This document shows positions 577 to 62,229 of a stretch of DNA of 63,183 nt, one piece after another (position 1 is the stretch's first letter; every line of letters begins with the position of its first letter). Source of the stretch: a virus (taxonomy: Duplodnaviria > Caudoviricetes); IMG/VR virus record IMGVR_UViG_3300035181_001095, positions 1 through 63,183 of that record; one strand, given 5' to 3'. Below the pieces are notes generated by a model, which was not told the origin of the DNA, did no database searches, and saw nothing but the letters and a program-made list of their open reading frames with translations. The position numbers and the translations under genes are program-made.

Positions 577-1329
577 TTATTTTATTTTACTCATCCAAAC
601 TCTTAACTTAAAACGAGATAAACATATTGGAGATAAACTATCTAACACAATTTTAAAATCTGGATTATCCAAATAATTAGTATATATATCGTTTGTATAT
701 TTTGCAATATATTTTTTTAATGGATATTTTTGATGTGCTTGTAAAACAAAGTTTTGCCATATTGCTGTATCTATTTGAAGCTGATAATCTGATGGAATAT
801 ACAAATCAAACAGGTCTGGTTTTACATATGAAACCATATATATTAAATAATAATCTTGTAATTGTCCATTTTGTAATAAATTTTTTATACTATCTTGTAT
901 TTTATCATTATCAATTAAGTCAACTTTAGATAGTTTATATTTCTGTCTAATAAATGTCCATATATCACATAAGTTAACTTGTGCTCCAATACCAACATAT
1001 AATGCAAACCCTGTTAAATTTTCGTTATTATCTTGCACAAAATCACCTGGCATATAGTGTATGGGAGCTATTAAAGTGTATGCAAACGCTTTTTTACAAC
1101 CACTTTTATTTATATACCAGGCAAATTGTTCTTGATGTAAAGAAGCATGATGAATATCTCCTAATCCTGGCACTATTGGAATGGTAGAACTTTGTCTATC
1201 CTCTCTATTATTACCCATTAATGGTTGTAAAACTCGCATGGCCGCAAATGATGTGGCAGATTTAGGGTCTTGTCCACCAATTAAAATTGGGTGTGCCCAT
1301 GTAAACCAATCTCTTTTTATATTACCCAT
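577..1329 (-). CDS. Hypothetical protein, virion/tail region
   Basis: 250-aa ORF overlapping its upstream neighbour in the late operon. Confidence 0.6.
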   Translation of the reverse strand: MGNIKRDWFTWAHPILIGGQDPKSATSFAAMRVLQPLMGNNREDRQSSTIPIVPGLGDIHHASLHQEQFAWYINKSGCKKAFAYTLIAPIHYMPGDFVQDNNENLTGFALYVGIGAQVNLCDIWTFIRQKYKLSKVDLIDNDKIQDSIKNLLQNGQLQDYYLIYMVSYVKPDLFDLYIPSDYQLQIDTAIWQNFVLQAHQKYPLKKYIAKYTNDIYTNYLDNPDFKIVLDSLSPICLSRFKLRVWMSKIK

Positions 1330-2618
1330 TCTATATGACCATTTTGTAAATCAGATTGTTCAAACCTTATTGGAACACAAGTATATCGTAACTGTTGATA
1401 ACGGTAAAGTTGTTGATATTTATAATATAAATCTTGTGCTTCAGGTGATAAAACATTTGATGCCTCTGGATAACAACGTAAACCGTTTGAAAAACCACTC
1501 TCTGTAATTGTATAATCAAATAATGTATGTTTAATAGTTGTTGTATAATTAAAACCTGCTGCAACTATAAACCAATAGTTGCAATAATAAGAAGAATATA
1601 TTTTTGATGTTTCAGAACCTTCACTCATAAATATAACATCATGATGTTTTATTAAATTACTTAAGGTAGGATGAGAAAACGGTATATTTTTAGCATATAT
1701 TGAATAATAATCATCTATATCATGTGTTAATTCAATGTAACAATCATATGGTGCACAAAATGTTGAACCAAAAGGCCCCCCTCCACACACTTTTAATATC
1801 TGATATTGTATTGCACTAACATATAAATTATCATACTGCCTATATGTATCATAGAATGCAAAACATGGAGAGACATCATCTCGGTTAAGTAGTGCTGTTA
1901 CTGGTAATTCAGGACATATACAATCTCCTGATACCATCCCAATTATTACATTAAAAGTCCAACCACCATATGCTGCTTGATATGGTTTACTATTTGAAGC
2001 TTTTGGTGGAGGTGAGGGTGGGTCTGCTCCTTCAAGACCTGAAAAAAATGCTTTATTTTCCCAAATATTATCCCATTTATGTTGAATATCAACCAGTTGA
2101 TTATGATAAAGCAGACGAGCAAATTTTCTATCCCCATTATAACCTACAATAGGAATTTGATTTCCTAATTCACCATGAAAAATAGAAAATTGAAACTCTT
2201 TGGTATCTGTTCGTAGCTTATCAATTTTATATGTATATAAAAATCCATTTGCTGATGCCAAAGCTAAACCTGTTGGAACATAATAACCAGGAAGAGTCTG
2301 ATGTGGACTATATGCATTCATCTGCATGTATCCATAATCTAATATAGAATTATATTCATATAAGAACTCTTTGTTAACATGTTCTTTAATAGGGGTATAA
2401 TAACTTTCGCTGTAATCTGTTGTTATAATCTCAAATAAACCATTTGTTAGATTATATATTTCATATACATACATATTTACACAAATATCTTCAGTAAGTT
2501 CTTCTATATAAAAAAAGATTTTCCAAAATTCAGGGCTGTCATGCTCAACCCGATATTGAAAAAAATCTAATGAAGTTAAATCTTTAATATGTTTATCCAT
2601 ATCTAATATGACTTTCAA
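1317..2618 (-). CDS. Hypothetical protein, Tyr/Cys-rich, probable structural
   Basis: 433-aa ORF in the late operon. Confidence 0.6.
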   Translation of the reverse strand: MKVILDMDKHIKDLTSLDFFQYRVEHDSPEFWKIFFYIEELTEDICVNMYVYEIYNLTNGLFEIITTDYSESYYTPIKEHVNKEFLYEYNSILDYGYMQMNAYSPHQTLPGYYVPTGLALASANGFLYTYKIDKLRTDTKEFQFSIFHGELGNQIPIVGYNGDRKFARLLYHNQLVDIQHKWDNIWENKAFFSGLEGADPPSPPPKASNSKPYQAAYGGWTFNVIIGMVSGDCICPELPVTALLNRDDVSPCFAFYDTYRQYDNLYVSAIQYQILKVCGGGPFGSTFCAPYDCYIELTHDIDDYYSIYAKNIPFSHPTLSNLIKHHDVIFMSEGSETSKIYSSYYCNYWFIVAAGFNYTTTIKHTLFDYTITESGFSNGLRCYPEASNVLSPEAQDLYYKYQQLYRYQQLRYTCVPIRFEQSDLQNGHIEWVI

Positions 2619-20600: not shown

Positions 20601-22658
20601 TTATCTCCCATTTTCGGAACTAAATTGATTAACATTCTGCCCTAAATCCTGCGCTTTGTCAATAACTGGATTACCATTGCCTTGATTTGTAAATGGAACT
20701 TGTCCTTGCGGTTGCTGACCTTGGTTTGGAACTGGCGCTTGACCTTGCTGCTGTTGTAATTGCTGTAAGAATTGCTGTAGTTCTGGGCTTGATGCAAATA
20801 TCTTATCAGTATCTAAACCTAAATTATCTGAAATCTGCTCCAATAAGTAACGTCTGCCCTCAACACCAAGTAATTGTGTATCCATAGGATTAGATGTAAT
20901 CTGTAAGAATTCCAATGCACGCTGTACTTGCGAGGCCTTCTCATCCAAAATAGATACGCCTTGAGCATTAATCTCGTAATCAGGCACATCAGCTATATCA
21001 GTTAAATATTGTAAATTAAAGTAATATTGTTTCTTTACTATTGGTTCAATTAAATTTGTATCAATATTATTCACCACATCTTTAATACCACGTGATGCAT
21101 TAGTATGTAACATTGATAAACCAGATGCGGTTCTACCTAATGAAGCCTGTGTTAAAGTGCCAGACTCATAAGATGGAATACCTGATAAATCTTCTGCAAA
21201 CTTATAAATCGTTTGCATCATTTCTATTAACTGTTGCACGGTAGGTGGAACATTATACATACGCACAGCAGGAGCACTATTCATAGCTGACTCATGTGCG
21301 TCTATCATCATAAATGGAAAAACTTGTTTCTGTTCTGATACATTGATACGGTCAACATTCCGTTCAATAATAGGCCCTGATGATATAATCGAATTGTTAA
21401 TAGCACTACGAGCAAGGGCGTTTAACGCCTCTTGTAGTGGTTTTAGAATATCAGCTATTGATAACCCCCAAAAACTATCTGGTATTTCAACAAATGATGT
21501 TTTAGTATATGGTTTATGTCCCAGAGGGTCAGGATTTAACATCGCTTTAATGACGGTGCTATCAGCTACCCAAATACACATATTATAATAACCAACATCA
21601 TCAATAGGCACACCTAATGTATCGGCAATACCTTCTTCTTGTAAAACTGAACCTCTTATTGTGCCCCAATACTCAATAACATCAATAACATCACCTTGGA
21701 AATAATTTTTACCTTCAAATTGCTGTCGCAATTCTTGAACAGCACTATCCACCCCACCAACTGTTACTGCTAAATACCCACCTGTATAACGAGATAAAAC
21801 ACTCCTAATAGCATCTTCATTGAATCCCTCAACACCAATTAAATTGTATAAATCAGCAGGTGCTAAATGTAAAATCTCAACAATATAATCACTATCAATA
21901 TCAGTGGATGTTGGTGATGGGTAAAGGTCAATAGGATTAACTCGATTGTATGTAGGTATAATCGTGGAGGTAGGTTCCTTGGAATTTTTCATAAAGACCT
22001 GCTCACGGCGTAACACAGGCCCTTTCAAAATACCAGCAGGAAATAATACTAAATCATATAACACAGATGAAAACGCTTTGTAAAACCCACCCTGTATAAA
22101 CTGGTCATAAATTTGCTGCTGCATTTTTTGTGCTAATTTATCAGCTCGGTCTTTTACCATATTCATTAAATCATCTTTGGTTTGTTCTTGAATAACTTGC
22201 TGTGTTTGTGGGTCTATTGTAGCACCACTCTGAAGTAATGGCTGCAAAGTTTGCATCAACTGTTGCTGTAACTGCTGCTCAATTTGGTCAGGCACATCAG
22301 GTATCGGAGTTGGTTTTAATTCAAATAACGTATCCTCATCAGCATATATGTCTGATAACCACGCCTTACCTGCACGAACCTTCATGTTAATCAACGGAAT
22401 AAATAACTCTGAACCACCAGCATCAGTTCTAATCTCTCTTAATTTTTCAGGTGTATATTCATTCTGCATTGAATATAACGCAGCAATAATCCTATTCATA
22501 ATCGGGTATTTCGCAGTCACTGCCCGATTCAAATCAGACATAACTTTCTCAACTAATGGTGTTAAATTATTTAATTCATTATTTTTTAATGCTGCATCAT
22601 CAGGATTATTGTTATTTAGTGATTCATAATTATTTAAAACTGAATTAAAATCATCCAT
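20601..22658 (-). CDS. Portal protein
   Basis: Follows TerL (TAATG overlap); VIEYWG, FWG..I, RTASGLSML motifs; Q/P-rich tail. Confidence 0.9.
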   Translation of the reverse strand: MDDFNSVLNNYESLNNNNPDDAALKNNELNNLTPLVEKVMSDLNRAVTAKYPIMNRIIAALYSMQNEYTPEKLREIRTDAGGSELFIPLINMKVRAGKAWLSDIYADEDTLFELKPTPIPDVPDQIEQQLQQQLMQTLQPLLQSGATIDPQTQQVIQEQTKDDLMNMVKDRADKLAQKMQQQIYDQFIQGGFYKAFSSVLYDLVLFPAGILKGPVLRREQVFMKNSKEPTSTIIPTYNRVNPIDLYPSPTSTDIDSDYIVEILHLAPADLYNLIGVEGFNEDAIRSVLSRYTGGYLAVTVGGVDSAVQELRQQFEGKNYFQGDVIDVIEYWGTIRGSVLQEEGIADTLGVPIDDVGYYNMCIWVADSTVIKAMLNPDPLGHKPYTKTSFVEIPDSFWGLSIADILKPLQEALNALARSAINNSIISSGPIIERNVDRINVSEQKQVFPFMMIDAHESAMNSAPAVRMYNVPPTVQQLIEMMQTIYKFAEDLSGIPSYESGTLTQASLGRTASGLSMLHTNASRGIKDVVNNIDTNLIEPIVKKQYYFNLQYLTDIADVPDYEINAQGVSILDEKASQVQRALEFLQITSNPMDTQLLGVEGRRYLLEQISDNLGLDTDKIFASSPELQQFLQQLQQQQGQAPVPNQGQQPQGQVPFTNQGNGNPVIDKAQDLGQNVNQFSSENGR

Positions 22659-26667: not shown

Positions 26668-26704
26668 AATTTTATCCCTTTCTTGGATTTTTGAAATTTT
26701 TTAC

Positions 26705-26753
26705 AACAAAAAACCCTAAAGGGTATGAATTTTAATCATACCCTTTAGGGTTT
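26705..26753 (-). terminator. Long perfect hairpin, terminator or processing site
   Basis: AAACCCTAAAGGGTATGA-7 nt-TCATACCCTTTAGGGTTT, with a T-tract following on the minus strand. Confidence 0.75.
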
Positions 26754-27120
26754 AGATTTTACGCCAGCCTGTATCTCCCTCACGGGAGGCTATTCTAAAA
26801 CTCCATCCTTCCTTTTCAGGCCAGTTTATGGGCCGGAGTATAAAGGGTTGAGAGGACTGCAGTACTGCCATTCCCTCAACGTGATAAATGGTGACATCTC
26901 CCTCTACGATTTCCCACCATTTTGTGGTGAGAAACAGTAAATCACTGCCATTACATATAAGGACCGCTTTACTGCAGTCCTCGTCAAATGCAATGGTGGG
27001 AATTACACGGCTGCCTCTAAAAATGCCCCCGACATTACTTACCACATTTTCAAATGGGAAAAATACTTTGACCACTTTCCCGTCCACATTCCTGTAATAA
27101 GTCCAGTTGAATTCATCCAT
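26752..27120 (-). CDS. Early hypothetical protein
   Basis: 122 aa; AGGGGG RBS. Confidence 0.6.
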   Translation of the reverse strand: MDEFNWTYYRNVDGKVVKVFFPFENVVSNVGGIFRGSRVIPTIAFDEDCSKAVLICNGSDLLFLTTKWWEIVEGDVTIYHVEGMAVLQSSQPFILRPINWPEKEGWSFRIASREGDTGWRKI

Positions 27121-27869: not shown

Positions 27870-28148
27870 TTATAACAGTTTAACTTTAGTAATTTTTAAA
27901 AACTGTATATCAGGCTCAGTACTATCAAGCCATGTAAAATCCAGCTTGTATGTTTCCAAAAAGCGCACCCAAACGATTTTATCATTAGGATTAGTAATCA
28001 AAGTAATATCATAATGTTTTTTGCATTTCTTATGCCTTTCAATGTTCTGAACGAGAAAAGCCATAGCGCTATTTCTCAAAAACCAATAACCATTAGATAA
28101 AATACGCCAAAATTTTTTTGGTGGAAAAATTTCTTTAATATCTTTCAT
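27870..28148 (-). CDS. Early hypothetical protein
   Basis: 92 aa; GAAAGGGG RBS. Confidence 0.6.
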   Translation of the reverse strand: MKDIKEIFPPKKFWRILSNGYWFLRNSAMAFLVQNIERHKKCKKHYDITLITNPNDKIVWVRFLETYKLDFTWLDSTEPDIQFLKITKVKLL

Positions 28149-28153
28149 TTTTT

Positions 28154-28435
28154 TTAACCCCTTTCATTTTTGAAAAAGTCTTTTAAGGTTAAGGTCATGG
28201 TACAATCATGACCATCCAATACTTCAATATCAACATAGACATTTAAATTGTCAGTAATATAAAATTTTTTGAAATGGCTAAACCAGGCGTCTATATCGTT
28301 ATACCAGATATAATAATCAAGATAATAATCGTTATCAGAACGCCCATCCCATGCAAACTCGTAAACAAGGTCAGATAACTCTAAAATTGAGTATAACCTT
28401 GATAGCCGATAGTTTGTTGAACTATTTACCAGCAT
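28154..28435 (-). CDS. Early protein, paralog family B
   Basis: AAGAAAGGGGAT RBS before ATG 28435; IL..SDL.YEF....Y.IW..D...W. Confidence 0.65.
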   Translation of the reverse strand: MLVNSSTNYRLSRLYSILELSDLVYEFAWDGRSDNDYYLDYYIWYNDIDAWFSHFKKFYITDNLNVYVDIEVLDGHDCTMTLTLKDFFKNERG

Positions 28436-28464
28436 TTTTGTTATCCCCTTTCTTATGATATTGT

Positions 28465-29094: not shown

Positions 29095-29370
29095 TTAATT
29101 TAACGGCTCCCAGTCACGGTAAAACTTGAAACCCGTGACTTTGAGTACGATATAATTCCCGCCTAACTTATCTGGCAATACTTGCAAAAATGCTTCATAT
29201 CCATCACGTAAACGCTCATACAAATAATAATGCCAGTAGATATAATGTTTTGCATGGATAAGAAACAAAAAAGAATAAGTCTCATCACGTTTCCAAGCCT
29301 TGATAAGACTATATGGCAGATTTAATCCATTGAGATAACACTCGACCTTTTCGAAGTTTGTCATTTTCAT
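29095..29370 (-). CDS. Early protein, paralog family B
   Basis: KV..YL..LNLPY; GAAAGGGGATT RBS. Confidence 0.6.
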   Translation of the reverse strand: MKMTNFEKVECYLNGLNLPYSLIKAWKRDETYSFLFLIHAKHYIYWHYYLYERLRDGYEAFLQVLPDKLGGNYIVLKVTGFKFYRDWEPLN

Positions 29371-29391
29371 GTTCGTAATCCCCTTTCATTT

Positions 29392-29673
29392 TTATTTCGG
29401 CTTAAATGTAAGTAAGCCTTCAACAGCCAACAAACACCCACCAGACGATAACACATCCACATCCGTCGTTATATGTTTTAAGTAATGTTTTCTTAAATAC
29501 TTACACCACTTTTCTACGTCCTCACAATGGACGTATATGTCGAACAAATAAACACTATAATAAAAACAGTCATGTACCCAATCACCCACAAACTCATAAT
29601 GTAGATTGGAAGCCCGTAAAATTGTGTCTATTTTAGCCCGCTCTTCTAACTTTGTGGTTAACTTGTATGTCAT
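29392..29673 (-). CDS. Early protein, paralog family B
   Basis: KI..IL.ASNL.YEF...IYVH..D...W..YL; AAGAAAGGGGATT RBS. Confidence 0.65.
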   Translation of the reverse strand: MTYKLTTKLEERAKIDTILRASNLHYEFVGDWVHDCFYYSVYLFDIYVHCEDVEKWCKYLRKHYLKHITTDVDVLSSGGCLLAVEGLLTFKPK

Positions 29674-29690
29674 GTTCTTAATCCCCTTTC

Positions 29691-30029
29691 TTAATAATCC
29701 TTATAAACTATCGTGCCTTTATCAGTCACACCCAAAATAATAGTGAATTTTGCCAGTTGATTCAATGCTATCTCGAGCGTTTCTTCATCCGTAGAATCCA
29801 CATCAAGGGTAATATCATTTAACTCAATGATATCATACACTGTGCGCTCGATAAAATCACAACTCAAAACCACAGGGTGAAACTCTATCGCTTGACCCAA
29901 ATCCTTTTGAATAGCTGTGAGATAATTGTATAAAATCTCCAACCCGTTGTAAGAAAGCGAACAGTGTGAAGACTTACTCATCACCTCGATAAAATCAGAT
30001 TTTGATAACGTGGCTAACTTGTGTTTCAT
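29691..30029 (-). CDS. Early acidic protein, paralog family A
   Basis: TLSK.DFI..M, SYNGLEIL, IEF.PV...CDF.E.TV, ILGVT..GTIV, closely matching 25528-25857. Confidence 0.7.
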   Translation of the reverse strand: MKHKLATLSKSDFIEVMSKSSHCSLSYNGLEILYNYLTAIQKDLGQAIEFHPVVLSCDFIERTVYDIIELNDITLDVDSTDEETLEIALNQLAKFTIILGVTDKGTIVYKDY

Positions 30030-30059
30030 GTTCTTAATCCCCTTTCTTGTTTATTTTTG

Positions 30060-30210
30060 TTAATTCCAATATAGCAAAAAAAGCACACAATGCAACCTCT
30101 ATCAAATACAAGATATGATAGATAAAATTCTACATATAAACTTAAACCCTGAAAAGATAGCCCAAAAAAATAATAAGCCTACAATGTGTGCTATTACTAC
30201 AATGTGTGCC
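30060..30210 (-). promoter_or_regulatory. Early promoter cassette C
   Basis: TTGCAT-16-TATATT with TGn; TACAATGTGTG at 30180 and 30198. Confidence 0.68.
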
Positions 30211-30310: not shown

Positions 30311-30394
30311 TGCCCAAAGACGGACTCGAACCGTCAAGGCGTTGCCGCCGAGAGATTTTAAGTCTCTTGTGTCTGCCAATTCCACCATTTGGGC
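30311..30394 (-). tRNA. tRNA-Leu(UAA)
   Basis: GCCCAAA/TTTGGGC acceptor stem, D-loop TGGCAGAC, anticodon arm AGAGA-CTTAAAA-TCTCT, long variable arm, GTTCGAGT T-loop; CCA not encoded. Confidence 0.95.
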
Positions 30395-31326: not shown

Positions 31327-31539
31327 CTATCCTCCTGATTCAATACAAGGGCCATTTATCCAACAGGCGTCTATTACATCTATAAAATCTTCCAAGAAAT
31401 CTAACGAATAGAGTTGAGTATCATCACCCCATTTATAAAACAAAAACAATTCATCTAACTGAATAAAAAAGCAATCTACGATTGTAAATTTCTTCTTTAG
31501 GTCTAATAAGGTTTCATCAAATGACTTCTCCATAATCAT
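31327..31539 (-). CDS. Small acidic hypothetical protein
   Basis: 70 aa; L..KKF...D.FF resembles 31536-31769. Confidence 0.55.
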   Translation of the reverse strand: MIMEKSFDETLLDLKKKFTIVDCFFIQLDELFLFYKWGDDTQLYSLDFLEDFIDVIDACWINGPCIESGG

Positions 31540-34412: not shown

Positions 34413-34450
34413 GCTTTCCCCCTTTCTTGGTGTTTTTTGTATATCTAACC

Positions 34451-34954: not shown

Positions 34955-34982
34955 CAAAAAATGAAAACGTTTTCATTTTTTG
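34955..34982. promoter_or_regulatory. Palindrome ATGAAAACGTTTTCAT, representative copy between the terS promoter and RBS
   Basis: Copies at 7408, 24313, 30225, 34961, 38821, 44663, 50769 and 62171. Confidence 0.75.
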
Positions 34983-35460: not shown

Positions 35461-35494
35461 CCCTGGGCAACATTGTTGCCCAGGGAATTTTTTT
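35461..35494 (+). terminator. Rho-independent terminator
   Basis: CCCTGGGCAAC-ATT-GTTGCCCAGGG then AATTTTTTT. Confidence 0.8.
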
Positions 35495-36220: not shown

Positions 36221-36821
36221 ATTAGTGCAGCAATTCCTCCAAGCCATGCACAAAGAAAGTGATGGCTGGGTTAACACAGCAATTACATCATGGGAAATCT
36301 ACAAAGGCAAAGAATGGCAATCTTTGAATTACAAGAGCTTCAAAGAATTTGTTAAAACAGAATTTGCCAACACGATAAGTTATGAAATGTTCCTATATAA
36401 AGTTAAAATCGGGAAAGTGATTGAAAAATACAATCTGGAACCTGAACTTTTAATTGATATGGGATGGACAAAATTCAATGAGATAGCCAAACTCGCTTTG
36501 AATGTATCTTTAGAGGCGGCCGAAGTCTTGGATATGATTGAGGAGGCTAAAGAGCTACCTTTCAGAGCTGTGCAAACAAAAATCCATGAAAAATACCGAG
36601 AAGCAAATAAAAGCCCTGAACATGTCAAATTCAGCTTGAACCCTGAACAATATGAAATCTACAAGGAGGCATTGCAAATTGCCCGTGATTTGGCAGTAAC
36701 AGGCAACCCTAATGTAGCATTGACTTATATCTGTTCAGAGTTCATCATGCACCATGCAGGGCAGGATAGCCCTACAGCCCAAGCTATCAGAAAATCCGTC
36801 GAGCAATTCGATGTGGAATGA
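36183..36821 (+). CDS. Putative DNA-binding protein
   Basis: W.....Y.SF.EF...E and G..K..E pattern (DUF3102-like, by eye); AAGGAGG RBS. Confidence 0.5.
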   Translation: MAKANQQQMVITKLVQQFLQAMHKESDGWVNTAITSWEIYKGKEWQSLNYKSFKEFVKTEFANTISYEMFLYKVKIGKVIEKYNLEPELLIDMGWTKFNEIAKLALNVSLEAAEVLDMIEEAKELPFRAVQTKIHEKYREANKSPEHVKFSLNPEQYEIYKEALQIARDLAVTGNPNVALTYICSEFIMHHAGQDSPTAQAIRKSVEQFDVE

Positions 36822-38175
36822 GCTTCACGAATGTATAGTAAAAGGCACACCTCTTATTTATATCCAAACAGAAGAGGTGAACAGGGTGGAGACTTATGTC
36901 AAAAGCATAGTTTCCACCCTGCGTAATTGTAAATATACCCCCGCTTCCGCATTGCCAACTGTCGAAGCCTGGACACAGCCACGACAATACTCACCACCCC
37001 AACAGGTGGTATTTATTAAAGGCTGGAATCATACAATTGTGAATGTCAGTTTAGAACGCATTCAAAATTTGTATCAAAAAACAGGCTTAACCGTTATTAT
37101 AGCGGGAACAAAACCCATCCCAACGGAATATAAGCAATACATATTACAGCTTATACTCCCACCATTGACTGAACAAGAACGCAAGGACATCATAAGCCAG
37201 TTTATCAATACGACAAATGTAACAAAACTTATTGATGCCACTCGAAATCTAACCACCTCTCAAATTATTGGCGCTTTAACTCACGCTATCAATCCTGAAA
37301 CCAAAAGCGTGAATATACAAAAAATTTATACTTATAAAAATCAAATTTTTAATAATCAACAATTACTAACTTATATTCCTGCCACGATTGATATGGAACA
37401 AGTCGGTGGTTTGAATACTCTTAAACAATGGTTATGCCAAACAGCCAAGATTTACCAAAATCTGGATGCTGCCATGAAATATGGACTTAAACCTGTCAAA
37501 GGGATGTTCTTATTAGGTATCCCAGGAACAGGCAAAACCCTCGTGGCAAAAATGGCAGCAACGTTGTTAAAATTGCCACTATACCAGTTTAATATTCAGA
37601 GCGTATTACATAGCTTGGTTGGGGAATCTGAACAGTATTTTTACCAGGCATTACAAACAATGGACAACCTTGCACCAGCCGTTATTCTATGTGATGAAAT
37701 CGAGAAAGCTTTTGCAGGGCATAACTCAAATAATGATAGTGGTGTAACAAATCGTTTGTTAGGAATGTTTTTAGGATATTTACAGGATGCAAATAACAAT
37801 AACTTCTTTGCATGCACAGCAAATAATATATCTCAATTACCACCTGAACTACTGCGGAAGGGTCGCTTCGATGAGATATGGTTTGTAAATACACCAACAC
37901 CATCAGATAGATTACAAATTATAAAGATACATTTACCGGAACAATACCATCATTTTAACTTGGACAAAATCAATGAATATATGACCGATTTTACAGGTGC
38001 TGAAATTGAAAATTGTATCCAACAAGCATTAAGGCAAACGTTTTATGAAAATACTCCATTAACCGAGGATATAATAATCAATCAAGCACAACAAATAAAA
38101 CCATTATGCAGTATCAAAAAAGATGAATTACAGGAATTAGTGGATAAATTTGGGAAACAAATTAGGCAGGCATAA
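36811..38175 (+). CDS. AAA+ ATPase, Ycf46-like
   Basis: VGGL..LK.W, GIPGTGKT, SLVGESE, CDEIEK, TANNI..LPPELLRKGRFDEIWFV. Confidence 0.88.
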   Translation: MWNELHECIVKGTPLIYIQTEEVNRVETYVKSIVSTLRNCKYTPASALPTVEAWTQPRQYSPPQQVVFIKGWNHTIVNVSLERIQNLYQKTGLTVIIAGTKPIPTEYKQYILQLILPPLTEQERKDIISQFINTTNVTKLIDATRNLTTSQIIGALTHAINPETKSVNIQKIYTYKNQIFNNQQLLTYIPATIDMEQVGGLNTLKQWLCQTAKIYQNLDAAMKYGLKPVKGMFLLGIPGTGKTLVAKMAATLLKLPLYQFNIQSVLHSLVGESEQYFYQALQTMDNLAPAVILCDEIEKAFAGHNSNNDSGVTNRLLGMFLGYLQDANNNNFFACTANNISQLPPELLRKGRFDEIWFVNTPTPSDRLQIIKIHLPEQYHHFNLDKINEYMTDFTGAEIENCIQQALRQTFYENTPLTEDIIINQAQQIKPLCSIKKDELQELVDKFGKQIRQA

Positions 38176-38274
38176 AATATAAGCAGCGTAAGCTATTAGA
38201 GAACCAAGAAAGGGGATTTTCAAGGGGGTGGCCATGTAAAAATGGCTATCAGGAGGAGACTTACGCTGCTTATG
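38172..38274 (-). ncRNA. Candidate sRNA with closing stem and anti-Shine-Dalgarno loops
   Basis: Downstream of a consensus promoter, no ORF; 14-bp perfect 5'/3' stem (38179-38192 with 38260-38273); CU-rich interior. Confidence 0.6.
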
Positions 38275-38280
38275 TTTATT

Positions 38281-38309
38281 ATTATAACTTACTTATTGAA
38301 ATAAGTCAA
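38281..38309 (-). promoter_or_regulatory. Consensus sigma70 promoter with no downstream ORF
   Basis: TTGACT-17 bp-TATAAT. Confidence 0.75.
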
Positions 38310-38319
38310 GCAAAAACCA

Positions 38320-38805
38320 TCAATCACAAGATACTGATACAATATAATTTGCATTCTGGGCACAATCTTTAAATGTTATTGCAACACCAGCTTCCTTTAA
38401 CATATCCTGCGTCAAATTATCTGCATATCCCTGACTGTAAAAGATAGCTTTAACACCTGCATTGATAAGCATTTTGGCGCAGATTACGCAAGGGAATGTG
38501 GTGCAGTAAAGGATGGAATCAGCTACGACTATGCCATGCCTGGCAGCCTGAACTAATGTATTCTGTTCGGCATGAAGACCTCGGCATAATTCATGGCGCT
38601 CACCTGATGGTATTTTTAATTTATCACGCAGACAACCTATCTCCATACAATGACGCAGCCCTGAAGGTGCTCCATTGTAACCTGTACATAGAATACGATT
38701 GTCTTTAACCAACACCGCCCCAACCGCTCTTCGCATACAGGTTGAACGAGTAGATACCAAATAAGCAATTGCCATGAAATACTCATCCCATTCTGGTCGA
38801 TTCAT
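38320..38805 (-). CDS. dCMP deaminase (ComEB/CMP-dCMP deaminase family)
   Basis: RP.WD.YFM, RSTC.RR.VGA, GYNG, HAEQN, PC..CAK. Confidence 0.95.
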
Positions 38806-38816
38806 AACAGCTCCCT

Positions 38817-39641
38817 TCAAATGAAAACGTTTTCACTATTACGCTTAATATGACCATGTGACCATAAATAACATATACACATCTTACCCAACAAATCTTC
38901 TTGTATATACCCACACCCTTCTTCATATGATAACTGTTCCTGTGGGCTTATACTGTGTTTAGGATACTCGAAATCACAATTCAAAAATACATGCTGGGTA
39001 ATCTCATCCTTATAAGAAACTGCGACTATATCGTTATTCAAATCAACCCATGCCTGATATTGTAATTCAGGCTTATATAAAGCAACCGGTTTAACCTTGT
39101 TAATGGCAATCTTTTTCATATTCAAAAATTTTAATTCACATAATTTTTTCAAACGATTATTTATCTGCTTAAATGTCATTTGGAATTGTTCTGTAAATTT
39201 ATCATGTGAAATTCTTACGAAATCATCCCATTTCATAGCATGATATTCAGATTTATTAGCTTGAAAATACCAATATGTAATAAAATCTAATAACATTAAA
39301 TCTTTTACATCTAAAAATGTTGTTAACAAATAATTGGTTCGATTACAAATTGTTTGCTCTTTCAATGTAAGTAAATCCATATTAAATGAGATATAATCCC
39401 CATCTTGAATAATGTAATCCTTATGTATCAAAGCATCTATTGCTTTACGCATTGTATCAAAATTAACATTCTCTTGAGGATGCAAAAGACGATGTATAAT
39501 AATAACATGTTCATGAATAAATGCCCTCTTTAAACATTCCTCCCCACAAAGATATAACGCATGCAATATGACCAAATCAGACCATTTAAGTGATGGTGCC
39601 AAATGATAATAATCAATCAAATGTATAAGATTTTTTTTCAT
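38817..39641 (-). CDS. Hypothetical protein with two possible winged-helix units (regulator or initiator candidate)
   Basis: [13 protein letters not shown] and [13 protein letters not shown] wHTH-like helices; next to the putative origin. Confidence 0.45.
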
Positions 39642-39668: not shown

Positions 39669-39697
39669 ATTTTACCACAAAAAATACAGTCTGCCAA
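39669..39697 (-). promoter_or_regulatory. Sigma70 promoter for the 274-aa gene and dCMP deaminase
   Basis: TTGGCA-17-TAAAAT. Confidence 0.55.
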
Positions 39698-55051: not shown

Positions 55052-55327
55052 ATGGATGATTTAAGCCAACAAATACAACAGGATTTTTTGAATGGTGAAA
55101 AAGCATCTCAAATTCGTAAAACTTATCAAATAGGTAAACAACGATTAGAGAAGATTTTGTGCCAAATACCTAATGAACAAATAACTACATGGAGATATTA
55201 CCCTGTTGCCAAAGACCAGATAATTAGTTTTTGGCAACAGGGATATAGATTAAGTCAAATTACCTGTATGACAGGATACCCAATAATTCTTTGTGAAAAA
55301 GTATTAAAGTATAATAAAGTTTTTTAA
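55052..55327 (+). CDS. Small double-HTH-like protein
   Basis: G....QI...Y.I and G....QI...TG repeats. Confidence 0.45.
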   Translation: MDDLSQQIQQDFLNGEKASQIRKTYQIGKQRLEKILCQIPNEQITTWRYYPVAKDQIISFWQQGYRLSQITCMTGYPIILCEKVLKYNKVF

Positions 55328-58300
55328 TCTGTTTCGTCAGCATTCGCCAGAAGGATGCCAAGTTTGGATGGTTTGCCAGATGCTCGTTTCAGAGTTTGTT
55401 TGATTGTATTCATTGTAATAAGAGGAATAACACCACCATATTTGGCAGCCTTCTGGTTGTATCTTGTAACATCATTTGTAATAATTTGGCGAATAGCATT
55501 CTCATCAGGAGCCCAACGTAACTTATCATAAATTGTATTTCTTTGTTCATCATATAATTTCTTTGTAGTATCAGCGGCTAATTTTGCTTCTGTTTCTTTT
55601 ACAGGTCGAATTGGTCTTAACCCTAATCCTGCAAGTACAGCTTCAGAGCCTGTGTATTTAATTGGTTGCCCATAAACATCTGTAACAACATTTCCATATT
55701 TTGTGAGTAAAGGTTTATTTTCAGCATAATTTGAATATGCGGATACAGCTTTTGAAAGTGATGGTGGGGCTATTCCCAAGAACATGTTTTTGAAATCACC
55801 TCGTTGTACTGCTCTATAAAGAGCCTCTGTATCCGATGATGTTCCACGCCATACACCAAATAATGTATTCATTAAACTGGGTATAGATAAATCATCAGGT
55901 ATTAAGCCAACAGACAACGATGTTGATATATCAGAGCCTAATAATGATGGTGCTCCATAGGTCAAGACATCTGCTCCTGTTTGCCCAACATGTTTTTGTA
56001 ATGTTTTATAGAACGCTTGTTTAGTATCTTTATCATCATCTGTAATCCATTGAAATGCTTTTAATATTTGGGTTACAAAAGGCACAGCTAAAGCACCACC
56101 AAACAGAGTTGTATATAAACCATTTGCCAATAATTTATCAAAATAAACTTTATTTTGTTCATTCCTGATAGTTTTATATAACCAACCTAAATAATTTACT
56201 TCATATCCTCGTAAAGTTAACATTGATGATACTATAGGATTTTTGAGAGCGATTAGTGGTTTATTAACTTTTGAAAAGATAAAAAACGCATTATCATTAT
56301 ATTTAGTACCAAAGTTTATAGCGTCCTCATTTGATAACCCTTTTTGTTTAGCCAACCGATATGCCATTAAAGCACCCATTTTACGACTTGCTAATTCCAT
56401 AGATTGCATAGGAGCCATTAAAGAAGTAAAGAGACTATGTAAATATGATGGCAAAATCATGGATGCTTCATTTCGTATTTGTGAAACAAAAGTATTTGCT
56501 GCTACACTGGTGCCTAAAATTTTATCTAATGCGTTTTGTTCTTCTGGATTTATTGTATCTAATCGCATTAAATTTTTAAGAAGTGACCAAGAACTTTGTG
56601 ATAGTCCACTTAATGCTTTTATATTGGCATTAACAAAATCCATACCTGATGTGCGTTCTGGTTTATATTGCCGCAAAGCATCCGCTTCAGCATTCATAAA
56701 ACCAAGAATTTCAGGCAGACCTACTGTAAATGGTTGTGTTAACTGTGATAAAGCACTTTTAAGACTCATACCTAACATACGCACAGTTAAAAATGTCTTT
56801 ATTGTTGCAGTTGCTTTATCAAGTACGCTGGCTGGTTTTAACATTGCTCCAGTATATTCGTTATAATATTTGAAAAGTTGTGTATCATTTTGTAACTGAT
56901 GTCTAACATCAGGACTATTTAGATATGCTTGTAATTGACTTGTGGCCGTGAGTCTTGCAATGCTATTTGACATTGCTGGTAAATAAGTAGAAATAACCTT
57001 TGGAAGATTTTTTTCAAATCCTTCTACAAGATTTTCTTGGCGCTGAATGAAACGAGATGTTGCAAAACCTCTACTCATAAAATCATTTTGTATATCACTC
57101 TGAATCATTGATATTAGTTTATCAATAGCCTTTTCATCAACAGGATGTTCTTGCTTTAGTCTTTCAGTCATATACTCAAGATACTGTTGCACAGCTGTAT
57201 TAGTAGTTCCTTCATATAATGAAGATACATTATTTGGATTTTTTGCTTTTACAATAACAATATCATTGTCTTTAACATTTCGTGGTAATTCATCAACAAT
57301 ACGCCCATTATATTGGGTTTGTAACCTCTTCATTATTTTAGCGGCTTGATAATGACCACCTGTTTGTGTGATTGTAGTAGGAGTATGCTCTCTATGTAAT
57401 TCAGCCCAGTATGATTTTGTAGTACCATCAGGGTATTGTTCATTAACCCCTTGGTAAACTTTAATAGCCCATTCGCCACGTTGCCGTAAACGAGGGGTAT
57501 AAAATTTATCAGCTGCTGTATAAGCATTAATTTGGTCATCAAAAGGTTTAATTTTGCTTAACGCATGCCCAATAAATTGATTAACAGTCTCATCTTCTTT
57601 TATATTAAATTCTTTTGGGATGACAATAGGGTTGTCTCTTAAAGAATCACTATTTTGAGCTATCCATTCAACCAAATGTTTCCGAGCATTATCAGATAAA
57701 TTAGCATATTCAGGCGTATTACTCAAAGCATAAATCACAGAATTTTTTAATGCAGTGAAATATTCGGTAGCCATTTTATCAAAAAATTGTTTGGTTTGGT
57801 GATAAATGTTAATTTCATCATTAGTTAATTTATATTTATTTTTTAATGTATTGTTATCTAATAATTTACCTTGAGCATCACTATCCCAGACGGCCTTTGC
57901 AAACATTGGGTTTTTAACATTTTCAATATCCCTATAAAATTGTTTGAATGCTGCTATGAGTAAATTACTTCTTTCCTCTGATGTTTTAAAAATGTTAAAC
58001 AATGATTTAATAACAGGATGATTGAACCATTGAGAACTAAGAAACATCCTGGCGAATGAGCTTAAACGTTTATCTCCTTTAAGAGAATCAACAACATGTT
58101 TAATAATACTAAATTGTGTAGGAACTATATCATCTTTATCAACAGAAAAACCAAGTGCTTTAAGTTGTTTAGTTTCAAATTCGTTTTGAGCTTTTCTAAA
58201 ATCTGCAAAAATAGACCTATCTTTATTTTTTTGTATAGCCTCAAAAATATCATCAGCATTATTAAAACCTAATCCGTTTATAGCGTTATTTACTCTTTCA

Positions 58301-61300
58301 AAGAAGTTTGCAATTTTCTTAAATATACCTGTTTGATTAGGTTCCATTATTTTATCAGCAAAGGCATCAGCAGCTTGTTCCATCCAATGTTCTTTACCAT
58401 TACTAAAAGCCTTTTTTAGAGTTGTAATTTCTTTTGGTGTAAAATAACCACTGTTTACTAATGTTTCAAAAACTTCATGCAAAGCTGTGCGTTTAGCTTC
58501 GGCGTCTTTTAAACCCGCACGCAACCAAATTAATGGAGCATTTGAATTTGATAGAATTATATTAACACCTCGAACTTTTTGTAAATAGGCTTTTAAGGCT
58601 AAATCAGCAGGTATGGTTTGGTCATGTCTGCCAATGGCTTCTAAAATATCTTTATCTGTAAATCCAAGAGATTTTAATTTGTCAGATATGTTATCAAAAT
58701 TAACAAATTCAATTTTAGCTGGAGTTAGGTCACCTAATGTTTGACGCAACCAATTAGTTAATTTTTGTGATATTGAATTTTGATAATAAACAACATTACC
58801 ATTTTGAATATCTCGTTTAGCTTGTTCCTGTAAAACTGGTTTAATATCTTCAGGTACTTTTTGCACCATATCTAATACTTGTGGCACTGTCATTTTACCT
58901 GTTGCTAAATCATCTTGTAACTGACTAATAGTTTGTTCGGTTGGATGTGTTAATTCTTTTTTTGATATGGTTGGTTTAATTTGTGGTTGAATAGTTTGGT
59001 TTTTTGTGACAGCATCAAAAAATCTTTGCTTCAATTGTTCTTTATATGTCTGTAACTCATCACGTTTAGCGGGGTAATCTTGTGGTGATTCATATCTGGC
59101 CTCTTTGACAGCATCTTCTTTAGCTTTAAGATTATCAGTTTCCCCTAAAACTTTAGCTATTGTATGTATATCATTATCTGTAGTTTGATTTTTAAATGTT
59201 TCAAATAAGTTGTGATTTACAATATTTGCTTTTAATTTATTATATGTAATTAATTCATCTGGAGTTAATTGTGGATTTTTTACAAATGTATTTGGTATTG
59301 GTTCAGCTGTATTTTCAGATTTGGTAACCGTACCTTGTTTTTCTTGTAATTTAGGTTCACTTGATGCTACCTCTGGATTTTTTCCTACTTCTGGATTTTG
59401 TTGAACATCTATAGGTGTGGATTCCTTATCTACTGTAGTAATATTATCAATGGCCTGTTTTTGTTCTGGTGTTATTTTTAAAGTTTTCCTATTTGTAGTA
59501 TTTGAATTTGCTTCATTATTTGGTTCTTCTACTGATTGTTTTTCCACATTATGTATATTTATTTCTGGTGACGTTTCAGGTAATTTTTGGTTTACTACAT
59601 TAGTTTCTTCAATTGGACTTTTTTTTTCTGAAGCTGTTGGATTTTGAACTCTATTACTCTGAAGATTTTGTTCTGTTGGATTTTGTAATTTTTGATATGA
59701 CTCTTTAGCGTCAAGCCGTCTATCAGCATAATACTTAAATTTTTTTAGTAATTCCGTAGCACTTTTATCTTGACCAATTATTTCTTGTGACTTCCCTGGT
59801 TGATTAAAAATAGCATAATATTGGTTAGTTTTTGTATCTTTGCGTATATCAACAAAATAATCTTTATTTGTTTCACTATATGCTCTTGCAACATATTGTG
59901 TTCCAGGAATTGATTCTTTATATGGTGTTGCATTAATCCTATCTTCTATTGTTTCAAAATTTGTTGGTTGCGTCTTTATTGATGGAGTTTCCGTTGGTTG
60001 TGTAGTTTCAGGTTCAGTTGATGTTGTAGCTTCAGGTTGAGTGGGAGCTGCCATAGAACTTAGTTTAGCATTTTCTTCTAATCTATCTAATATAGGTTGT
60101 GTATTCCTTAAAACTTCTTCGGCAGTTTTACCATACCCAATTACTTCATAAGGCTTACCTGGCACATTTTGAACTGCAAAAAATGTTGGTTCAGGACTAT
60201 TAGGGTCTTTATATATATCAATAGAAATACCACTGTTACTCTCATGATTCAAATTTCGTCCAACAAGTTGTAATCCTGGTATTTTTTCACCAGACATAGT
60301 GGAAGTAATTTGATTTATAATATCTGTATCGTGTAGAGGTTCTGAAAATTCTTGGGAGGATAAGGTTGGCGATTCATCTGTAATACCTACAATAGCTCGA
60401 CGTTGTCCTGGTTCAACTTCTGTTTGAAAATATTTTTGAGTTTGAGGGTCATAAAAAACTTCTGTGCCACTTTCATTTCTATCTAATACTTTAACTGGTA
60501 TAAACCCCTCTGGAATAGACCCATCATGTATTGTATCTTCCAATTGACCAGCTCTAACCTTTTCAATTGGCATATGATAAGATTTTGGAATATTCGGATA
60601 ATCAGATACTTGTTCAGGATGCGCTTCCTGTGATGTTTCAGGTTCAGACTGTGCTTCTTGAACAGGAGGGGCTTCTGGAACAGGCTGCGCTTCCTGTGAT
60701 GTTTCAGTAGGTTCAGGCTGTGCTGCTTGATTTACTGCTTCCTGTTGACGAGCATTAACGGTATCTGTATATACCTTGTTTATATCTGCCACATCAGATG
60801 TTTCATGTAAAATTGGATATGTGCCTGTCTTTGGGTCTATTTCAGTCAAATCCTGTAAAACATATGTCTTAACCTTACCATCATTATCTTTGACTAAAGT
60901 CATGACAAGCTTATTAGGTCTATCAAGTAATTGTGTAAAATTATCTTTATGGTAAACTTCAAAGTTACCATTCATTATTGGTTCTTGTGATTGATTATTG
61001 CCAGGTTTTGTTAAATCTATTTTTGGTAAATCACCTGAGTGCATTGTATAAGGCATTGCTTCTTTAATTACATCAGGTATTTGCTGATTATCTTTATTAT
61101 AAACTTTATTTAAGTCCATAACTAATGGTATAATATCTTTATATTTAGCAAAATTTTGAGCTATTTCATCTGGATTATCTGTCCAATTAGTATAGGCTTG
61201 TTGAACTAATTGTTGGTTTTCAGGAGATAAGTTATCGTAATTCTCATTATGTAAAAGACTAAATTGTGCATGTAATTTAGCTGCGTCTTCAGGTGATAAT

Positions 61301-62154
61301 TGTGCTCCAGACGTTGCATTTTGTTGATTCTTTGCCAACCTTTCCTTTAGAGTTTTAGCACCTACTGTTCCTGCGCCAAGAACAGCACCAACAAGAGCAT
61401 TTTCAAGGCCTTCTTTGCCTATATCTGATGCAGTAACATTTGGATTAATACCTGATGCCCCTTCAAGAGTTTTATTCAAAGCGCCTTGCGCTCCCATCGT
61501 AACAGCATCAGCTAATGCAGCCTTACCAGCTTCCAGCAATTTTGCTTTTAATGTATCAGGCACAACATTAGATGCTAATACCCCACGAGTAACTTTGCCA
61601 AGAATACCAGGGGCTACTGTATTGACTAACCCAAATGCTTCAGGATATAGACCATTCGATTGGTTAGGAGGCATTTCTTGATGTGCCTGTTCAGCAGATG
61701 ATGCAAAAAGTGCTGGGAGTGTTACTTCTGGAGCGGCAGCAGAAGCAGCCATAATTGGTAAAGCACTTACAACTCCATGCTCTATTTTAGCAATTGGATT
61801 TGTGTATATTTGTTCAGGGTTTCCTCCATAATTTTGATTAACCCGTTGCTGCCAATCTTGTGCTACATGTTGCATTCCTTGTTGTAGAACTCTGAATATA
61901 CTATCAGGTTGTGCCCCAAATATTCTATCAGGAACATAATCAAGGGCTTGGCCAACTAAATTTAATGTTTGAGGAGCCATACTCTCGGCAGCATGAAAAG
62001 GTGCTTGTAGTAACTGTTGGCCTACAGGCAATGCAGTCTGTTGAACTTGTGGTATTCCAAACTGTTGTTTATATGAATTTATTTGGTCATCATTATAACC
62101 TTGTTGTCTTAATGTATTTTCAAATAATTGAATACGTTGCTGTAAATCGTCCAT
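55324..62154 (-). CDS. Giant internal virion/DNA-ejection protein (2276 aa)
   Basis: Ala/Gly-rich N-terminal membrane-like segment, P/E/Q/T linkers, helical C-terminus; last gene of the late block; GAGGTG RBS. Confidence 0.75.
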   Translation of the reverse strand: MDDLQQRIQLFENTLRQQGYNDDQINSYKQQFGIPQVQQTALPVGQQLLQAPFHAAESMAPQTLNLVGQALDYVPDRIFGAQPDSIFRVLQQGMQHVAQDWQQRVNQNYGGNPEQIYTNPIAKIEHGVVSALPIMAASAAAPEVTLPALFASSAEQAHQEMPPNQSNGLYPEAFGLVNTVAPGILGKVTRGVLASNVVPDTLKAKLLEAGKAALADAVTMGAQGALNKTLEGASGINPNVTASDIGKEGLENALVGAVLGAGTVGAKTLKERLAKNQQNATSGAQLSPEDAAKLHAQFSLLHNENYDNLSPENQQLVQQAYTNWTDNPDEIAQNFAKYKDIIPLVMDLNKVYNKDNQQIPDVIKEAMPYTMHSGDLPKIDLTKPGNNQSQEPIMNGNFEVYHKDNFTQLLDRPNKLVMTLVKDNDGKVKTYVLQDLTEIDPKTGTYPILHETSDVADINKVYTDTVNARQQEAVNQAAQPEPTETSQEAQPVPEAPPVQEAQSEPETSQEAHPEQVSDYPNIPKSYHMPIEKVRAGQLEDTIHDGSIPEGFIPVKVLDRNESGTEVFYDPQTQKYFQTEVEPGQRRAIVGITDESPTLSSQEFSEPLHDTDIINQITSTMSGEKIPGLQLVGRNLNHESNSGISIDIYKDPNSPEPTFFAVQNVPGKPYEVIGYGKTAEEVLRNTQPILDRLEENAKLSSMAAPTQPEATTSTEPETTQPTETPSIKTQPTNFETIEDRINATPYKESIPGTQYVARAYSETNKDYFVDIRKDTKTNQYYAIFNQPGKSQEIIGQDKSATELLKKFKYYADRRLDAKESYQKLQNPTEQNLQSNRVQNPTASEKKSPIEETNVVNQKLPETSPEINIHNVEKQSVEEPNNEANSNTTNRKTLKITPEQKQAIDNITTVDKESTPIDVQQNPEVGKNPEVASSEPKLQEKQGTVTKSENTAEPIPNTFVKNPQLTPDELITYNKLKANIVNHNLFETFKNQTTDNDIHTIAKVLGETDNLKAKEDAVKEARYESPQDYPAKRDELQTYKEQLKQRFFDAVTKNQTIQPQIKPTISKKELTHPTEQTISQLQDDLATGKMTVPQVLDMVQKVPEDIKPVLQEQAKRDIQNGNVVYYQNSISQKLTNWLRQTLGDLTPAKIEFVNFDNISDKLKSLGFTDKDILEAIGRHDQTIPADLALKAYLQKVRGVNIILSNSNAPLIWLRAGLKDAEAKRTALHEVFETLVNSGYFTPKEITTLKKAFSNGKEHWMEQAADAFADKIMEPNQTGIFKKIANFFERVNNAINGLGFNNADDIFEAIQKNKDRSIFADFRKAQNEFETKQLKALGFSVDKDDIVPTQFSIIKHVVDSLKGDKRLSSFARMFLSSQWFNHPVIKSLFNIFKTSEERSNLLIAAFKQFYRDIENVKNPMFAKAVWDSDAQGKLLDNNTLKNKYKLTNDEINIYHQTKQFFDKMATEYFTALKNSVIYALSNTPEYANLSDNARKHLVEWIAQNSDSLRDNPIVIPKEFNIKEDETVNQFIGHALSKIKPFDDQINAYTAADKFYTPRLRQRGEWAIKVYQGVNEQYPDGTTKSYWAELHREHTPTTITQTGGHYQAAKIMKRLQTQYNGRIVDELPRNVKDNDIVIVKAKNPNNVSSLYEGTTNTAVQQYLEYMTERLKQEHPVDEKAIDKLISMIQSDIQNDFMSRGFATSRFIQRQENLVEGFEKNLPKVISTYLPAMSNSIARLTATSQLQAYLNSPDVRHQLQNDTQLFKYYNEYTGAMLKPASVLDKATATIKTFLTVRMLGMSLKSALSQLTQPFTVGLPEILGFMNAEADALRQYKPERTSGMDFVNANIKALSGLSQSSWSLLKNLMRLDTINPEEQNALDKILGTSVAANTFVSQIRNEASMILPSYLHSLFTSLMAPMQSMELASRKMGALMAYRLAKQKGLSNEDAINFGTKYNDNAFFIFSKVNKPLIALKNPIVSSMLTLRGYEVNYLGWLYKTIRNEQNKVYFDKLLANGLYTTLFGGALAVPFVTQILKAFQWITDDDKDTKQAFYKTLQKHVGQTGADVLTYGAPSLLGSDISTSLSVGLIPDDLSIPSLMNTLFGVWRGTSSDTEALYRAVQRGDFKNMFLGIAPPSLSKAVSAYSNYAENKPLLTKYGNVVTDVYGQPIKYTGSEAVLAGLGLRPIRPVKETEAKLAADTTKKLYDEQRNTIYDKLRWAPDENAIRQIITNDVTRYNQKAAKYGGVIPLITMNTIKQTLKRASGKPSKLGILLANADETD

Positions 62155-62229
62155 TATAGCACCTCAAAAAATGAAAACGTTTTCATTTTATGTTCCTTCG
62201 GAAGCATTTTATATTACTTCAGAGTCAGT

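Follow-up and report, generated by a model that had tools for sequence, protein, structure and literature searches.

A conserved, structured non-coding element occupies positions 38174-38309 of the window, the whole stretch of 63,183 nt analysed here (Caudoviricetes; IMG/VR record IMGVR_UViG_3300035181_001095). It sits between the stop codons of two converging genes, which encode an AAA-ATPase on the plus strand and a dCMP deaminase on the minus strand, and there is little doubt that it is a real module maintained by selection. The reading favoured here, tentatively and from the sequence, is that a promoter on the minus strand drives a small RNA (sRNA) with C-rich motifs complementary to Shine–Dalgarno (SD) sequences. 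This RNA would double as a terminator, and may act in the way that RsaE and RoxS do without being homologous to them. Anti-SD pairing as the mode of action is possible, if slightly more doubtful, and an action on the accessory gene set as a timing switch, as put forward in the original prediction for this DNA, appears unlikely.

In this model, the host RNA polymerase would start at the minus-strand consensus promoter, at ~38274, and would stop after ~100 nt at the long closing stem and its U-run. The same stem would also end the upstream operon, which comprises a 274-aa gene and the deaminase gene, and, in the opposite direction, the ATPase operon. A helix of 14–15 bp would lock the 5' and 3' ends of the RNA together, while an open multiloop would show three C-rich segments (four in the related locus L005). 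These segments resemble the anti-SD tail of 16S rRNA and, by analogy with RsaE and RoxS, may pair with G-rich ribosome-binding sites (RBSs) and block initiation. The longest predicted matches fall in leaders of the AAGAAAGGGGAUU type, which belong to small accessory genes at 26–34.5 kb.

Structure and conservation of the element

The perfect 14-bp closing stem of the original prediction is present and is extended by one G-U pair. It encloses 67 nt (65 nt with the G-U pair); the scripts used a 70-nt slice, and this is the 'interior' referred to below. Folding of the minus-strand RNA gave -31.3 kcal/mol (z -6.8), and none of 200 shuffled sequences folded as well. The C-rich motifs, three in the window and four in L005, have mean probabilities of being unpaired, P(unpaired), of 0.60–0.87.

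Only three members were found, namely the window, L003/L004 and L005. Between the window and L003/L004, the ATPase is identical at 387 of 407 amino acids and at 107 of 130 fourfold-degenerate sites, and the element at 93 of 94 aligned positions. For L005 the corresponding values are 104 of 129 amino acids and 9 of 26 fourfold sites, while the element agrees at 80 of the 95 positions aligned, and the alignment has 14 gap columns. Since 80/95 far exceeds the 9/26 of the adjacent ATPase gene, the element is under purifying selection, and this extends to the motifs, motifs 1–3 being letter-identical in the window and L005. The fourth C-rich anti-SD-like motif of L005, UUCCCUCCUUC, arose in a diverged segment beside the 3' arm. 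The stem of 15 pairs is kept in all three members, with one compensatory change from U-A to C-G. Covariation of loop and RBS sequences in relatives, which had been suggested as a check, is not supported for the match between the RNA and the leader of the 274-aa gene, which weakens in L003 (see below).

The stretch is also present in four DNA runs labelled as microbial-mat or sediment metagenomes. Among the differences listed for these runs, none falls within 38179-38273; a variant found alongside differs at position 38178 and along the whole of 38274-38325.

When the ATPase protein was scanned against collections of viral, metagenome and genome sequences, L002, L003 and L005 were returned, together with a cyanobacterial AAA gene that is unrelated. 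Four of five DNA patterns scanned against viral contigs returned only L004, and a 14-mer scan of viral contigs matched at least 115 stretches, L004 included. A covariance model built on the members detected no further member in 96 sources (the window plus 95 loci, 79 of them from the 14-mer scan). Its weak matches were to the reverse strand, to a remnant of the element in G001 and to the antisense of a leader at 26700-26771. Matches of 17 nt in G003 and G004 lie inside an apparently continuous coding stretch, as read without an ORF (open reading frame) call.

A known RNA family, whether RsaE/RoxS or another in Rfam, was ruled out, there being no significant covariance-model match. At gathering thresholds, the whole window gave only a tRNA-Leu; at E<=10, the sole match on the element in a search of 37900-38600 was rli43, which scored 14.4 bits where the gathering score is 100. 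A small protein gene was also ruled out, as no ORF frame is conserved across the three members. The gap had been described as having no ORF, and this holds in the sense that the 32-aa minus-strand ORF that does exist there is not conserved: its ATG frame stops after four codons in L003, and in L005 the stem arm is read in another frame. The plus-strand ORFs of the element differ in all three members.

A MITE (miniature inverted-repeat transposable element), an insertion sequence (IS) end or another repeat was likewise rejected, since the element is single copy in the genome and only the three orthologous copies occur in 805,553 bases of loci. The same count tells against the wider proposal of a DNA-level feature (a recombination site, a MITE-like repeat or an origin hairpin) or a decayed gene-start remnant, in either case with no function as RNA. 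Such a proposal could draw on a rearrangement junction in G001 that lies inside the left stem arm, on the likeness of the plus-strand interior to remnants of an RBS plus ATG, and on stem conservation that is the same for both strands. Conservation of the interior, however, far exceeds that of neutral sites, the small ORFs lack conservation, and no flanking direct repeat is apparent by eye. A DNA-level explanation is therefore regarded as very improbable.

In L005, a TnpB-type gene (868-2019, minus strand; Cas12f1-like_TNB, 8.8e-23; OrfB_IS605, 1.5e-09) adjoins a remnant of the 274-aa gene (L005 747-793 against window 38893-38939, 85%).

Promoter, strand and termination

The consensus promoter reported at the element, TTGACT-17-TATAAT, is present, with 11 of 12 positions matching. 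It is the best site in 36.5–40.5 kb and among the three best in 24–43.9 kb, and the same promoter type is found at the divergent early-promoter region of the phage, 35015 (minus)/35030 (plus). All three members share identical -35 and -10 hexamers, with identical sequence directly beside them (CTTGACTT and TATAATAATA), and each scores 11/12. The spacers are only about half identical; that of L003 is 16 nt with a TG and that of L005 is 17 nt with a TG. In the window and L003, the -10 hexamer is 7–8 nt from the stem. In L005, the consensus promoter is upstream by a further ~110 nt, and the proximal position has a -10-like sequence with a TG extension, TATAAC (read by eye). L005 is without the deaminase gene and yet keeps a palindrome (ATGAAAACGTTTTCAT, described below), the promoter and the element in that order, with the promoter directly after the palindrome; this suggests that promoter and element move as a module. 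The U-run 3' of the stem on the minus strand is found in all three members, as CUUUUAU in L003 and UUUUUUC in L005. Taken together, the comparative data favour a minus-strand transcription unit, and it is fairly probable that a discrete minus-strand sRNA is made. The 274-aa/deaminase operon on the same strand begins at a TTGGCA-17-TAAAAT promoter at 39697.

The ~110 nt between the distal promoter and the element of L005 (505-615) contain three minus-strand hairpins and one plus-strand hairpin with a U-run. Nothing in the window corresponds to this region, and Rfam gave no match.

Alternatively, the functional RNA could be the plus strand, which as the 3' end of the ATPase-operon mRNA might serve as a decoy or sponge for C-rich sRNAs, for a leader-binding repressor or for 30S subunits. 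The original prediction had already pointed out that the plus-strand RNA folds its inner hairpin better, and this was borne out: the fold is -43.4 kcal/mol (z -7.6; 0/200 shuffles as good), and the G-U pairs of its inner hairpin correspond to A-C mismatches on the minus strand. Its three or four SD-like G-rich motifs are identical to accessory leaders, with P(unpaired) of 0.58–0.79. Because transcription of the ATPase operon beyond the stop codon (38175) leads straight into the element, a plus-strand copy is probably present as the 3' end of an mRNA; in L005 a plus-strand hairpin and U-run lie just beyond the element, so plus-strand transcripts probably cross it. G-rich sponge RNAs that bind C-rich sRNAs are among those described in PMC8216469. 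Against this, no conserved plus-strand promoter was found in the scans, which gave only a 9/12 site (38150-38178) in the window and listed none in L003 or L005. The conserved promoter is on the minus strand, as is the better conserved U-run: U-rich tails beside the stem occur in 3/3 members on the minus strand and in 2/3 (the window and L003) on the plus strand. A decoy or sponge as the main function seems improbable. The plus- and minus-strand RNAs, if both are made, would be perfectly complementary.

It could also be argued that the element is only a bidirectional intrinsic terminator or insulator of the converging operons, and that the promoter-like site and the interior have no role in trans. 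Its location exactly between the converging stop codons and the U-rich tails that the window and L003 have on both strands are in keeping with this, as is its loss from G001, the contig that carries L002, at a junction where the genes no longer converge. In G001, the deaminase gene, a tRNA gene, the ATPase gene and homologues of window 34053-31778 are all co-directional. Only the left stem arm is kept, joined via a GTAAG microhomology to an internal fragment of a small gene. A scan with the deaminase yielded 14 loci, and in four of these (L014–L016 and L018), where deaminase, tRNA and neighbouring genes are co-directional, the element is likewise missing beside the deaminase gene. The records that lack it are fragments, 19–52% complete, and these relatives may carry a copy elsewhere. 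On the other side, the other terminators of this phage are compact canonical hairpins, so that a conserved 70-nt interior exceeds what termination needs. That interior is under the purifying selection described above, L005 has gained another motif of the same kind, and the promoter hexamers were kept in 3/3 members in spite of diverged spacers. Termination as the sole function is accordingly rated as unlikely, though it deserves serious consideration.

Complementarity to accessory gene leaders

The sRNA reading predicts pairing with leaders, and complementarity was assessed over 91 leaders, comprising 23 in the accessory block (24.7–35.6 kb) and 68 others. The complementary sites named in the original prediction are present and exceed shuffle expectation. 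TCCCCTTTCTT has four exact occurrences (0.02 expected), the 16-mer has six sites with <=3 mismatches (0.63 expected), and TCTCCTCCTGAT has nine sites with <=2 mismatches (2.56 expected), those at 31328 and 31775 included. A contiguous complement of >=10 nt was found in 11 of the 91 leaders, compared with a mean of 0.59 for dinucleotide shuffles (max 7, n=300). Pseudo-sRNAs, assembled by taking three leaders at random and using their antisense, matched a mean of 2.7 leaders, and 0.7% of 300 reached 11. When similar leaders were collapsed to 82 clusters, eight were matched against a null mean of 1.8, and none of 300 nulls reached eight. Matches are enriched in the accessory block, with 8/23 leaders against 3/68 elsewhere (Fisher 5.6e-4) or, by cluster, 5/15 against 3/68 (p 0.004). 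The best candidate targets are given in Table 1.

Duplexes of motif 3 with the best leaders are predicted at -20 to -24 kcal/mol, compared with -13 to -16 kcal/mol for a generic 16S-type tail, a motif assumed here for comparison and which may differ from that of the host. The motifs are themselves close to a generic anti-SD, and AGAAAGGGG pairs with the generic tail. Whether the RNA pairs better than would be expected for generic SD-containing leaders depends on the measure. The contiguous matches beat both nulls, whereas the duplex energy of the whole interior did not separate accessory from other leaders (p 0.40) and tracked pairing with the generic tail (rho 0.60), which suggests that much of the pairing is generic SD complementarity. 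Ranking of targets by whole-interior energy gave no discrimination and was dropped in favour of the contiguous-match tests. The difference in RBS class that had been noted between accessory and structural genes is evident: GAAAGG occurs in 12/23 accessory and 0/30 structural leaders, and GGAGG/AGGAG in 7/23 and 14/30, respectively.

Some accessory leaders are repeated together with the first codons, as in 29654-29707 and 30010-30063 (54 nt, 81%) and also in 28143-28175 and 29365-29397. The proteins behind these repeated leaders are only 10–28% identical. This points to possible homogenization of leaders, or to leaders that serve as recombination linkers.

A further possibility is suggested by icaR of Staphylococcus aureus, where a UCCCC-type motif (UCCCCUG) in the 3' untranslated region is described as complementary to the SD of its own mRNA (PMC3868564). 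The element is also an operon 3' end, that of the 274-aa/deaminase mRNA, which might pair with the RBS of its own operon and involve no free sRNA. The claimed complementarity at the RBS and start of the 274-aa gene is present in the window, at 13 of 15 positions. It is weaker in L003, where the leader reads GCAATG in place of GCCATG and the RNA has one C fewer, and covariation of the RNA with this leader, examined between the window and L003, is not supported. Unlike the icaR case, the motifs number three or four, and immediately upstream of the element there is a conserved promoter, which a role confined to the 3' untranslated region leaves unexplained; the pairing segment is, moreover, partly in the stem of the inner hairpin. 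An icaR-like mechanism is considered quite improbable.

The sRNA reading can also be taken further than we favour. The RNA might be a mimic of the 16S tail, with motifs tuned to extended AAGAAAGGGGAUU leaders, which shuts the early set off, and the complement in the converging ATPase mRNA might be its sponge. In such an all-RNA timer, accumulated RNA would out-compete the ribosome at AAGAAAGGGGAUU leaders, and the sponge at the 3' end of the ATPase mRNA would delay shut-off. This elaboration is judged improbable.

A number of observations weigh against the sRNA reading or its proposed regulon, in addition to the better fold of the plus strand, the plus-strand hairpin and U-run of L005 and the weaker 274-aa match of L003. 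At the level of the element, a helix that encloses 70 nt makes an atypical terminator, and the element was missed by a terminator consensus scan. Its three SD-like sites in 80 nt form the densest such cluster of the genome, yet ~1.4 such triples are expected by chance. The minus-strand-specific G-U pairs at the stem ends are unfavourable or, at best, neutral. Genome-wide, there are nine promoter sites of >=11/12, compared with 2–9 (mean 4.4) in 20 shuffles, so that in this AT-rich genome an 11/12 match alone is not rare. Of the three members, two are nearly identical and there is one compensatory pair, and hence no real covariation statistic can be given. As regards the targets, the 91 leaders come from a simple home-made gene caller, which included some doubtful ORFs and omitted those of <45 aa; several candidate targets share duplicated leaders; and the whole-interior energies fail to discriminate, as described above. 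Among relatives, the element is lost in G001 and lacking from the four deaminase loci, and G001 and G005 carry exact AAGAAAGGGGATT leaders although the element is absent at this junction. None of the relatives found has both the RNA and the accessory block. Finally, the labels 'Csx20-like' and 'anti-CRISPR/anti-defence' could not be upheld, as 0/10 accessory proteins have a Pfam match at E<=0.01. In the original sRNA interpretation, a minus-strand unit is favoured by the comparative data, and the stem, the conservation of the motifs and the excess of matches in the accessory block lend support; the functions assigned to the target genes are without family support.

Table 1. Positions of the element, its neighbours and its candidate targets (window coordinates unless stated)
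Feature	Position	Strand	Remarks
AAA-ATPase gene	36754..38175	+	Converges on the element; Pfam AAA, 4.4e-23; the plus-strand copy would lie at the 3' end of its mRNA
dCMP deaminase gene	38320..38820	-	Pfam dCMP_cyt_deam_1, 2.9e-24; final gene of a minus-strand operon whose end is the element
Sigma-70-type promoter, TTGACT-17-TATAAT	38281..38309	-	11/12 match; predicted start ~38274, first base of the stem
Predicted ~100-nt RNA	38174..38274	-	Closing stem, multiloop with C-rich motifs and U-run; fold -31.3 kcal/mol
Closing stem, 5' arm, ATAAGCAGCGTAAG on the minus strand	38260..38273	-	U-A pair is C-G in L005
C-rich motif 1, UCUCCUCCUGAU	38248..38259	-	Mean P(unpaired) 0.84; CCUCCUG same in all three members
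Inner hairpin, GCCAU/AUGGC	38231..38246	-	Five pairs, invariant in three sequences
C-rich motif 2, ACCCCCUU	38222..38229	-	P(unpaired) 0.72; one C fewer in L003
C-rich motif 3, AAUCCCCUUUCUUGGU	38203..38218	-	P(unpaired) 0.65; 16/16 same in L003 and L005
Closing stem, 3' arm	38179..38192	-	Inverted repeat and fold
U-run past the stem, AUUUUAU	38174..38177	-	Overlaps two bases of the ATPase stop codon
Leader of 112-aa gene, best candidate target	30036..30049	-	14 nt against motif 3; predicted duplex -23.7 kcal/mol
Leader of 93-aa gene, candidate target	29680..29692	-	13 nt complementary
Leader of 76-aa gene, candidate target	34419..34431	-	13 nt complementary
Leader of 93-aa gene, candidate target	28443..28454	-	12 nt complementary
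G001 rearrangement junction	L002/G001 20967-21112 vs window 38160-38192 and 34053-33935	n/a	Left stem arm joined to the inside of a small gene

Phage setting and comparison with known regulators

The 63,183-bp record is a complete virus with direct terminal repeats of 127 bp and ~33% G+C. Recognizable genes include those for a large terminase, a portal/adaptor, a DnaB-type helicase, a primase, a DNA polymerase, a UvsX-like recombinase, a ribonucleotide reductase and a radical-SAM protein; no integrase or repressor was named in a partial annotation of the window proteins. DNA searches for a close isolate phage gave no match. In tblastn comparisons with isolate phages, identity reached at most 41% for the terminase and 37% for the ATPase, and the matches were to phages of many different hosts. 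Strong SD use is the one indication that the host may be 'Bacillota-like'.

A tRNA-Leu(UAA) gene (30311-30394, minus strand) lies within the accessory block; in G001-type relatives, the tRNA gene is between the deaminase and ATPase genes. Directly after the first plus-strand early gene there is a perfect bidirectional terminator (35461-35485), with an 11-bp stem that includes eight G-C pairs; given this terminator, the plus-strand genes at 35.6–38.2 kb need another promoter. A 2276-aa ORF (55324-62154, minus strand), which has no Pfam or PHROG match, is preceded by a copy of the palindrome ATGAAAACGTTTTCAT at 62171. This palindrome, 16 nt long and flanked by A/T runs, is present in eight copies with <=2 mismatches (0.10 expected), which start at 7408, 24313, 30225, 34961, 38821, 44663, 50769 and 62171. 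Five of the eight are intergenic or in leaders (24313, 30225, 34961, 50769 and 62171). The copy at 34961 spans ~+1 to +25 relative to the early promoter 35015-34988 on the minus strand, and the copy in L005 (657-676) is 7 nt upstream of the -35 hexamer of the element's promoter. The role of the palindrome may be that of an operator, a 5' hairpin or an AT-rich terminator working in both directions.

The closest functional parallels are the C-rich sRNAs of the Bacillota. RsaE and other Rsa RNAs are described as binding SD regions through unpaired UCCC or C-rich motifs and thereby blocking initiation (PMC2790875), and in RoxS and FsrA the C-rich regions are reported to do the same (PMC8216469). 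As these and related accounts present them, RsaE/RoxS, the RsaA–K class, FsrA and CsfG are stand-alone sRNAs with a sigma-A-type promoter and a Rho-independent terminator, an arrangement that is predicted here also, and the likeness extends to the possession of several unpaired C-rich motifs complementary to G-rich SD sequences. The putative RNA differs from them in that there is no homology of sequence or structure, it is phage-encoded, its best matches are to the phage's own leaders, and it is known from sequence alone. In addition, its motifs would lie in one large multiloop under a 14–15-bp helix of the 5' and 3' ends, and not in separate hairpin loops.

The plus-strand version would resemble the sponges RosA and RsaI, as far as these have been described, in showing unpaired G-rich regions able to bind C-rich RNAs. 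It would be the 3' end of an mRNA and not a stand-alone RNA, and no conserved plus-strand promoter was found for it. With intrinsic terminators, the element has in common a GC-containing stem followed by a U-run at operon ends, which could be used in both directions; it differs in its conserved 70-nt interior, in place of a loop of 3–8 nt, and in escaping the consensus scan. Phage factors that occlude the RBSs of phage gene sets include the c4 RNA of P1/P7, the sar RNA of P22 and the RegA protein of T4. The c4 and sar RNAs belong to temperate phages and each act on a single neighbouring operon, while RegA is not an RNA but a protein; proposed here, by contrast, is a trans-acting RNA with generic anti-SD-like motifs and many leaders as targets.

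For sRNAs of non-temperate phages, a function is known in few cases. Phage-encoded sRNAs as such are documented in the literature sampled, and a narrow search of it returned no report of a phage sRNA that uses anti-SD pairing to regulate a set of early leaders of the phage itself. If the element proves to be a terminator only, its conserved 70-nt interior would still be unusual. The statistical link between the motifs and one family of leaders provides a precise hypothesis that can be tested with reporters. Should the RNA prove real, the principle of the C-rich anti-SD sRNA would reach beyond the chromosomes of the Bacillota into phages, and the RNA would represent a compact, portable part for the control of translation.

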